Both the position numbers and the translations under genes were made by a program. A stretch of 64,000 nt of DNA from a virus (taxonomy: Duplodnaviria > Heunggongvirae > Uroviricota > Caudoviricetes). Shown piece after piece: positions 63,487-64,000 of the stretch; within the stretch, counting starts at the first letter, position 1, and each line of letters begins with the position of its first letter. The stretch covers positions 1 to 64,000 of IMG/VR virus record IMGVR_UViG_3300033069_001798, one strand, 5' to 3'. The notes below the pieces were generated by a model that saw only the letters and a program-made list of their open reading frames with translations, was not told the origin of the DNA and searched no databases.

Positions 63487-64000
63487 CTATTCAACCAAGT
63501 GCCAATGCTTTTCGTATACGTGCAAAGAACCCGCATGCCAAATCATGGGACCAACTTTGACGCCCAAATCGTTAGCAAGCTGCTTGTGAACAAAATCTTG
63601 CCAGACGCGGTCGTTGCGATATCCATACAAGACATCGTTCGACCTCATGCGAACGTCAGCAACCAGCTCTCCATTTCTGACGAAGTACTGGACTGAATCA
63701 GTACAGATGAAGTCGCTCATCCCGCTACGGTTGTAATCTTTCCAGATCGAAGGACGCGTGTACACCATCTCTGCGCGTCGGCTTTCTGGAGCTCGACGAA
63801 GTTCAGCTAGAACGTTGCTGTACTGATCGTGATTCTCAGGGCTCCAGATAAGATAACCATAGTTCGAGTTGATCTCACCGTTAGGTGTAGCGCATGCAAC
63901 CCAAGCAGCAGGTGCACCGCCAGGGATATCATGAACGTTAAGAGACATAGACTTGTACCACTCGATCTCCCTAGCTGCGTAGTCCCTGTTCACGGTCCCA
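63487..64000 (-). CDS. dCMP (or dUMP) hydroxymethylase, T4 gp42-like (5'-partial at window edge)
   Basis: REIEWYKSMSLNVHDIPGG..GEINSNYGYLIWS..ESRRAEMVYTRPS..GMSDFICTDSVQY..MRSNDVLYGYRND..GSLHVYEKH tracks T4 gp42 (RELEWYKSKSLFVKDIPGE..GEINSNYGWAIWS..DSRRGIMIYTRPS..GMSDFMCTNTVQY..MRSNDVVFGFRND..GSLHVYSRH). The frame is open to position 64000. Confidence 0.8.
   Translation of the reverse strand, partial: GTVNRDYAAREIEWYKSMSLNVHDIPGGAPAAWVACATPNGEINSNYGYLIWSPENHDQYSNVLAELRRAPESRRAEMVYTRPSIWKDYNRSGMSDFICTDSVQYFVRNGELVADVRMRSNDVLYGYRNDRVWQDFVHKQLANDLGVKVGPMIWHAGSLHVYEKHWHLVE

Follow-up and report, generated by a model that had tools for sequence, protein, structure and literature searches.

A predicted dCMP hydroxymethylase gene at the end of the window

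The 64,000-nucleotide stretch of phage DNA analyzed here (positions 1 to 64,000 of IMG/VR record IMGVR_UViG_3300033069_001798, class Caudoviricetes; hereafter the window) ends within a gene for a homolog of gp42, the deoxycytidylate (dCMP) hydroxymethylase of phage T4. This gene and the putative DNA-modification module around it are the subject of this report. The visible 3' part of the T4-type dCMP hydroxymethylase (5-hydroxymethyl-dCMP, 5hm-dCMP, synthase) gene occupies 63487..64000 on the minus strand: the open reading frame (ORF) has its TAG stop at 63487-63489 and is open at the window end (64000), with 170 codons plus the stop visible. The complete gene (219 codons) was found at L001:5932-6591, with the initial 49 codons lying beyond the window end. 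L001 is a 16.5-kb contig recovered by exact-protein look-up of an HslV-like neighbor; it shares 10,458 bp with the window at 100% identity (L001:6078-16535 = window 64000-53543) and reaches 6 kb past the window end.

The assignment was based on phmmer comparison with T4 gp42, on PF00303 and on conserved residues. Among all PDB sequences, phmmer returned T4 dCMP hydroxymethylase (PDB 1b49, residues 50-226) as by far the top match of the window part (E=6.6e-58); the best true thymidylate synthase (TS) reached E=1.5e-9, the entries 9iqu/9iqc E=2e-9 and MilA E=4.4e-7. 9iqu/9iqc are deposited only as 'thymidylate synthase', and our suspicion that they are the phage HY126 enzyme is unverified. The HMMER alignment to 1b49 was colinear except for one 7-residue gap and held every run (GEINSNYG, SRR, YTRPS, GMSDF, CT, VQY, MRSND and GSLHVY) from which an earlier note, made from the letters of the window, had deduced near-colinearity with the T4 enzyme. 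The full-length protein aligned with T4 gp42 across residues 21-219 in register with the T4 numbering (E=1.1e-70), and its identity was 50-52% to T4 gp42 vs 26-27% to RB69 gp48. PF00303, the thymidylate synthase family, was matched by the window part (E=1.2e-16) and by the full-length protein (E=5.2e-18). Moreover, tblastn matched 1,593 of 50,697 phage records, the best being gp42 homologs of T4-like phages (54-57% identity).

Active-site residues of the T4 type

Certain 'gp42-like' TS homologs have turned out to be 5-hydroxy-dCMP synthases that depend on flavin and O2 (PMC13326640, 2026): production of 5-hydroxydeoxycytidine (5hodC) was shown for RB69 gp48, DLP3 gp80 and the RL38J1 enzyme, while the HY126 enzyme is credited to He et al. 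(PMC13326640). The same study lists positions, numbered as in E. coli ThyA, that tell these activities apart: N177D indicates a dCMP substrate, L143D/E a non-methyl product and D169N a 5-hydroxylase, and an Asp kept at D169 together with Trp at W80 denotes a folate-type active site (PMC13326640).

RB69 gp48 and T4 gp42 were taken from their own genomes and aligned with ThyA and the window protein. The window enzyme equaled T4 gp42 at all seven diagnostic positions, from which RB69 gp48 departed at three (80, 169 and 173). The nucleophile (ThyA C146; Cys148 of the window enzyme, in FICTD) and the general base (ThyA E58; Glu60, in AREIEW) were Cys and Glu in both phage references, and both columns were invariant in the alignments. 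At ThyA L143 the window enzyme has Asp145 (in GMSDFIC), T4 gp42 Asp and RB69 gp48 Glu; at ThyA N177 it has Asp179 (YRNDRVWQ in the window enzyme vs FRNDYAWQ in T4), with Asp in both references. At ThyA D169 it has Asp171 (in MRSND), where T4 gp42 has Asp and RB69 gp48 Asn, and at W80 and G173 it shares Trp and Gly with T4 gp42, the RB69 residues being Ala and Val.

Because Asp179 sits at the ThyA N177 position, the substrate is predicted to be dCMP and not deoxyuridylate (dUMP); because Asp145 sits at L143, a non-methyl product is expected; and because Asp171 is retained, the enzyme should not be a flavin-dependent 5-hydroxy-dCMP synthase of the RB69 type. The earlier note had proposed replacement of cytosine, or of thymine if the substrate were dUMP, and had named the discriminating residue of the full gene as one check. 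Asp179 upheld the cytosine half of this proposal and excluded the thymine half. The T4-identical residues therefore indicate a folate-type 5hm-dCMP synthase. Judged by its sequence, the enzyme is a T4 gp42-type deoxycytidylate 5-hydroxymethyltransferase that depends on folate, and we are highly confident that the gene cut off at the window edge truly encodes such an enzyme and comes from an uncultured jumbo phage. The hydroxymethylase itself adds to a known class, as TS-superfamily synthases of 5-hydroxymethylcytosine (5hmC) in jumbo phages have been mentioned in general terms (PMC7824862).

Epimerase and glycosyltransferase genes beyond the window

Upstream of the hydroxymethylase, L001 encodes in order a 54-amino-acid (aa) ORF, a 322-aa epimerase, a short remnant ORF, a GIY-YIG homing endonuclease and a 441-aa protein. 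The epimerase (L001:4813-5781) is NAD-dependent and belongs to the 4-epimerases of the short-chain dehydrogenase/reductase (SDR) superfamily (PF01370, 7e-53), its best matches being WbgU (2.7e-47) and WbpP (2.9e-45), with GalE-type enzymes at 1e-24 to 4e-39. It has a GxxGxxG motif, an intact Ser/Tyr/Lys triad in the context 'ASSSSVYG...YALQK' and a small gatekeeper residue, Thr (Ser in WbgU), at the position of E. coli GalE Tyr299. Among SDR enzymes this triad with a small gatekeeper is the pattern of a 4-epimerase able to accept N-acetylated hexoses linked to uridine diphosphate (UDP), not that of a 4,6-dehydratase. The protein is thus predicted to be a GalE/WbgU-type UDP-hexose or UDP-N-acetylhexosamine (UDP-HexNAc) 4-epimerase. 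Best match, motif, triad and gatekeeper all liken it to WbgU and WbpP (group-3 UDP-hexose/HexNAc 4-epimerases); it scored under every NCBIfam equivalog cut-off.

The 441-aa protein (L001:2396-3721) is a GT-B glycosyltransferase (GT) encoded 2.2 kb past the window end. It had no Pfam, PHROG or NCBIfam match and none by tblastn against the 50,697 phage records, and it matched T4 alpha-gt as a fold only. Its homologs number >400, on contigs of up to about 370 kb. The statement of the earlier note that neither a glucosyltransferase nor a dCTPase is visible in the window agreed with our searches, which detected none inside it.

Mobile elements lie on both sides of the GT gene. A DUF7487/HNH-like homing endonuclease gene is inserted upstream (L001:1440-2357) and is absent from L010, an 81.6-kb IMG/VR contig about 99% identical to the window genome. 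The GIY-YIG endonuclease gene lies downstream (L001:3849-4767) and seems N-terminally truncated in L001 relative to L010; after it, a 65-aa ORF duplicates the C-terminus of the GT ('...RCSYEVTTLSAMRKMNLL' vs '...RCSYEETTLSSMKRMDLL'). Between the kinase gene described below and the GT gene, some loci, the window's own genome included, encode a 227-aa class-I S-adenosylmethionine (SAM)-methyltransferase-like protein with weak Pfam Methyltransf_23/25 matches (L004:9039-9722, L010:206-889, L001:1-285), which might modify the sugar or the base.

Conservation of the module in a jumbo-phage lineage

A scan of IMG/VR with an alignment of the GT yielded 32 related loci, on contigs up to 369 kb, in which genes were counted by local tblastn. 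The epimerase and a TS homolog were each present in 30 of the 32, the two loci without the latter being truncated. A kinase with a thymidylate-kinase/deoxynucleoside-kinase (dNK) fold lay upstream of the GT in 31, and thymidine kinase (TK), dCMP deaminase and a superoxide-dismutase (SOD)-like gene followed in most. Cys146, Asp143, Asp169 and Asp177 (ThyA numbering) were found in 30/30 TS homologs; the D169N signature, which RB69 gp48 carries as Asn, was absent from the window enzyme and from all 30 lineage homologs.

The TS homologs fell into two classes. The first was 48-76% identical to the window enzyme and about 220-260 aa long. The second, in about half of the loci (L013, L021-L023, L025, L028, L032-L034, L036, L037 and L039-L041), was 26-32% identical and 269-360 aa long (most 324-360, with one 179-aa fragment) and occupied the slot beside the epimerase, which suggests that a distant analogue has replaced the enzyme within a conserved module.

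In the relative L004/L005 (contig about 309 kb; 64% GT identity), the order was P-loop protein (179 aa), SAM-methyltransferase-like protein (227 aa), GT, 264-aa protein, epimerase and TS homolog (219 aa), then the 59-aa ORF, two HslV/proteasome-like genes, TK, CCA/poly(A)-polymerase-like genes, a plain 151-aa dCMP deaminase and the SOD-like gene. Directly upstream, L010 carries the methyltransferase-like gene along with the final part of the kinase gene. Pieces of an intein-bearing DNA polymerase III alpha-like gene were observed a few kb upstream of the module in relatives (L004:1-3824). At the nucleotide level, blastn of window positions 56001-64000 against the collection of 50,697 phage records returned no match, and the relevant terms are absent from a paper on a 'novel lineage of large aquatic bacteriophages' (PMC12619734).

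The kinase was placed by a 20-sequence profile and an AlphaFold2 (AF2) model. Pfam and PDB searches with the single sequence gave P-loop noise only, and homology to gp1 was not detectable; the profile matched deoxynucleoside kinases (2jas, 6.6e-5) and SPbeta YorR (1.4e-3). The wider search for a dCTPase, a kinase and a transferase proposed by the earlier note thus uncovered the GT in L001 and the kinase in relatives; a dCTPase was not found in the ~70 kb seen.

Genes downstream of the hydroxymethylase

The earlier note had placed thymidine kinase and dCMP deaminase next to the hydroxymethylase. Both neighbors were confirmed by Pfam, with two genes intervening. The first, a small conserved ORF (63306..63485, minus strand), begins 1 nt past the hydroxymethylase stop; it has 59 aa from an inner ATG (76 aa for the maximal ORF, which extends to 63536) and no Pfam match, its 59-aa version is called in L002/L003, and a 59-aa homolog stands at the equivalent position in L004. 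The second (62752..63309, minus strand) encodes an HslV/proteasome-beta-like Ntn hydrolase (PHROG 1040, peptidase HslV family, 1.5e-15), which is present in most related loci and for which no role in the modification pathway was proposed. The L004 gene closest to it (14760-15305) has no Pfam match; a second Ntn-hydrolase gene next to that one (15309-15854) matches PF00227 at 4.4e-6.

The thymidine kinase gene, tdk (62163..62732, minus strand; PF00265, E=1.2e-41), is kept in the module in 27 of the 32 related loci. The gene at 60880..62199 (minus strand) joins, in frame, an N-terminal Cys-rich/TnsA-like endonuclease region and a dCMP deaminase domain (residues ~300-435; PF00383 5e-23, PF08722 4e-5, PHROG 174 dCMP deaminase 4.9e-47). 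Beyond it, 60749..60886 (minus strand) is what is left of the resident deaminase gene after its displacement: a 3' end of ~44 codons that shares 66% identity with L004 deaminase residues 105-148 (E=2.5e-14) and lines up with the last part of cd in L010. The resident 153-aa cd is intact in the 99%-identical L010 (L010:7546-8007), and the window copy is overwritten after codon 9. The GC profile delimits the replacement as a 1.28-kb AT-rich segment (~40% GC), in which the endonuclease region is fused to a different deaminase domain (43% identity to the L004 lineage-type deaminase). The segment looks like a homing-endonuclease-type element that brings its own copy of the gene it disrupts.

A further set of conserved genes in the window (59738-60454, 54557-54931, 54928-55506 and 62752-63309, all on the minus strand) comprises, besides the HslV-like gene listed last, genes for an Fe/Mn-SOD-like protein (kept in 29 of the 32 related loci), a pterin-4a-carbinolamine dehydratase and a CN-hydrolase/nitrilase-like protein.

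Proposed pathway and alternative explanations

The enzyme family, the active-site signature and the order and conservation of the genes, established by sequence comparison and structure prediction, suggest that the phage probably replaces cytosine with sugar-decorated 5hmC. The proposed route would start with attack of Cys148 on C6 of dCMP, followed by transfer of the methylene of 5,10-methylene-tetrahydrofolate to C5. Water would then add to the exocyclic methylene intermediate, with Asp145 in place of the water-excluding Leu143 of ThyA, yielding 5hm-dCMP and not a methylated base. The thymidylate-kinase-fold kinase encoded a few kb upstream would phosphorylate 5hm-dCMP, a host nucleoside diphosphate (NDP) kinase would supply the triphosphate, and the phage replicase would use it instead of deoxycytidine triphosphate (dCTP). 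After replication, the GT-B (GT4-like) glycosyltransferase may add a hexose or N-acetylhexosamine to the 5-CH2OH group on DNA, the sugar donor coming from the adjacent GalE/WbgU-type UDP-hexose 4-epimerase. The downstream dCMP deaminase and thymidine kinase would balance thymidine triphosphate (dTTP) supply, as in T4.

We put the probability of this overall pathway, T4-type 5hm-dCMP synthesis with probable glycosylation of 5hmC, at about 0.8, and regard entry of 5hmC into the phage DNA as likely to the same degree. The likely hypermodified DNA proposed by the earlier note gained support from the upstream epimerase and GT in L001, from the kinase in relatives and from the lineage-wide arrangement. 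As in T-even phages, the modification would shield the genome against restriction and CRISPR nucleases. C/G-containing palindromes were not under-represented in the phage (median observed/expected ratio 1.04 for 4-mers and 1.09 for 6-mers), which fits protected DNA and is not diagnostic. On the other hand, the suggestion of the earlier note that the phage tolerates its own nucleases and glycosylases thanks to the modification found no support: UvdE, Fpg/Nei, HhH-GPD, the 5'-3' exonuclease and the homing endonucleases are repair-type or sequence-specific enzymes, and none of them needs modified cytosine for tolerance.

Several observations weigh against the proposed pathway or restrict it: i) the GT is acidic (isoelectric point, pI, 5.6-5.8 vs 9.05 for T4 beta-gt), a mild point against DNA binding, and 5hmC is an acceptor that we infer for it; ii) no homolog of T4 beta-glucosyltransferase was found by tblastn in the window, L001, L004/L005 or the 32 IMG/VR loci, the alpha-gt sequence not being among the queries; iii) tblastn of the same sequences found no gp56-type dCTPase, a negative bounded by the ~70 kb seen of a genome of probably ~300 kb; iv) for the window's own genome, the kinase is represented by no more than a C-terminal fragment, that of the 99%-identical L010; v) the conserved gene order could be mere core-genome synteny, since the order of TK, cd and the SOD-like gene is kept too. 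The tblastn searches with gp56, T4 beta-gt and the RB69 cluster gave chance-level matches only; RB69 gp56, for example, hit an endolysin-like gene on its non-coding strand at E=0.039. If dCTP is not cleared, replacement of cytosine may be partial. Two NUDIX hydrolases are no more than candidates for dCTP clearance: one at 32315..32824 (minus strand; PF00293, PHROG 1198), whose NCBIfam matches, including a weak one to a pyrimidine deoxynucleoside triphosphate (dNTP) diphosphatase, were all under cut-off, and one at 48148..48603 (minus strand; PF00293, 4.5e-22), in the 46.8-53.5 kb part of the window that was annotated by direct Pfam and PHROG scans.

With these points counted in, the balance tips slightly toward the GT acting on 5hmC in DNA. 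We regard it as possible, though less likely than not, that the lineage decorates 5hmC with a non-glucose sugar (galactose or N-acetylgalactosamine from the WbgU-like epimerase) by means of a new DNA-glycosyltransferase family. The predicted glycoform and the GT family are potentially the new elements of the module. In the explanation that competes best, although we consider it unlikely, 5hm-dCMP would be made and 5hmC would be present in DNA, but the GT and epimerase would serve a virion protein, a host envelope glycan or a small molecule, and the DNA would bear bare 5hmC, possibly partly substituted. Consistent with this, the closest structures to the GT are small-molecule/lipid GT4 enzymes (BshA, PimA and sucrose-phosphate synthase), the protein is acidic, no dCTPase was found in the sequences examined, and the synteny takes in the unrelated SOD-like and HslV genes, so that adjacency of the genes may be lineage inheritance.

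The remaining alternatives concern the hydroxymethylase itself. A flavin- and O2-dependent 5-hydroxy-dCMP synthase like RB69 gp48, DLP3 gp80 or the HY126 enzyme, with a sugar ether-linked directly to C5, would share the superfamily, the dCMP-type Asp at N177 and an acidic residue at L143, and a GT4-like GT and a nucleotide kinase adjoin here as in the RB69/DLP3/HY126 clusters. However, the window enzyme has no D169N (RSND vs RSQN in RB69), keeps the folate-site W80 and G173 that RB69 gp48 lacks, and is 26-27% identical to RB69 gp48 vs 50-52% to T4 gp42; its match to 9iqu/9iqc, possibly the HY126 enzyme (unverified), stands at E=2e-9 vs 6.6e-58 for T4 gp42. On D169, W80, G173 and the low identity to RB69 gp48, this possibility was rejected as very improbable.

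Still less probable is a dCMP methyltransferase making 5-methyl-dCMP, an ordinary thymidylate synthase or a dUMP hydroxymethylase. Xanthomonas phage XP-12 reportedly produces 5-methyl-dCMP by a dCMP methyltransferase. Membership in PF00303 and the database name 'thymidylate synthase' on close relatives would fit such enzymes; however, with Asp instead of Asn at ThyA 177 dUMP is ruled out as preferred substrate, Asp where ThyA has Leu143 points, as in hydroxymethylases, to a non-methyl product (XP-12 itself being outside the comparison), and the NCBIfam TS equivalogs scored far under cut-off (35-54 bits vs cut-offs of 108-405, e.g., 53 vs 327). Least probable of all is hydroxymethylation of cytidylate (CMP) for a nucleoside metabolite and not DNA, as by MilA, which has the Asp/Asp signature in common and a weak match (4.4e-7), but the T4 gp42 match is ~50 orders of magnitude better and the gene lies among tdk, cd, a deoxynucleoside monophosphate (dNMP)-kinase-like gene and replication genes. 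The preferred assignment is thus the folate-dependent, T4 gp42-type enzyme.

Other features of the window

Elsewhere, the window encodes a 910-aa protein (12043-14775, plus strand) with Pfam matches to the major vault protein shoulder (PF11978) and faint Vault repeats, which has no PHROG match and is unusual for a phage. Positions ~35-12000 hold ~40 consecutive small ORFs (55-115 aa), all on one strand (plus); many carry a loose motif (an N-terminal 'GDLV/C' and later 'LLPdG...'), and BLAST joins small subsets of them only. The array looks like a set of highly diverged tandem paralogs. Host-like genes at 23535-25160, 25506-26438, 30053-30868, 31173-31619 and 28729-29481 (all minus strand) form an unusual combination: GroEL chaperonin (PHROG 5725, 1.7e-145), UvdE UV-damage endonuclease, Fpg/Nei glycosylase, HhH-GPD glycosylase and ADP-ribosylglycohydrolase.

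Significance

The analysis extends the T4-type pathway of cytosine hydroxymethylation to a large, uncultured lineage of jumbo phages, one for which no cultured relative turned up among the 50,697 phage records, and it applies to environmental sequences the newly published D169N rule separating 5hm- from 5-hydroxy-dCMP synthases. An uncharacterized GT-B family and a UDP-hexose/UDP-HexNAc 4-epimerase would be the likely makers of a new 5hmC glycoform. If so, glycosyl-5hmC DNA would be resistant to cleavage by many restriction enzymes and Cas nucleases, the modified DNA could bias sequencing and cloning of phages of this lineage, and a non-glucose decoration would add a new type of DNA hypermodification as well as a new family of DNA glycosyltransferases. 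Moreover, the enzymes of the module are candidate tools for 5hmC labeling.

Comparison with known systems

T4 gp42 (PDB 1b49/1b5d/1b5e) is the closest counterpart, with 50-52% identity over the whole length and numbering that coincides to about residue 195. The shared residues include Lys28, Glu60, Arg123/124, Asp145, Cys148, Arg168-Ser169, Asp171, Asp179 and the His/Tyr of the C-terminal region, and both genes stand in a nucleotide-metabolism context with tk and cd. The window enzyme is shorter (219 vs 246 aa), being without the 7-residue T4 insert at 198-204 and the last 20 residues. It is carried by an uncultured jumbo phage, whereas T4 belongs to the Straboviridae, and T4 has gp56 and beta-gt, neither of which had a homolog found by sequence near the window enzyme. 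With respect to the T4 alpha- and beta-glucosyltransferases, the phage GT showed no tblastn similarity to beta-gt (alpha-gt was not used as a sequence query); it is nearer in structure to GT4 enzymes such as BshA and PimA, and it is acidic, not basic.

The arabinosyl-5-hydroxycytosine (5hoC) clusters of RB69 (gp48), DLP3 (gp80) and HY126 (PMC13326640) resemble the module in combining a dCMP-acting TS-family enzyme with a thymidylate-kinase-like kinase, a GT4-like GT-B and NDP-sugar enzymes. In contrast, their sugar is supplied by an arabinose-5-phosphate pathway, where the window module has a 4-epimerase, and the D169N of RB69 gp48-type enzymes is absent from the window enzyme, which has Asp at ThyA 169 and Trp at 80. 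In Rhizobium phage RL38J1, genes 214-216 (kinase, galactosyltransferase and TS homolog) show the same three-component order, and a hexose (galactose) as proximal sugar would fit a donor supplied by a 4-epimerase; however, the RL38J1 TS homolog is a 5-hydroxy-dCMP synthase with D169N and its sugar gene a UDP-galactose mutase, the likeness to the window module being one of gene content and order. Thus the module is the T4 paradigm of gp42, kinase and glycosyltransferase with different accessory parts: its architecture is like that of the RB69/DLP3/RL38J1 5hoC clusters, and its chemistry is that of hydroxymethylation.

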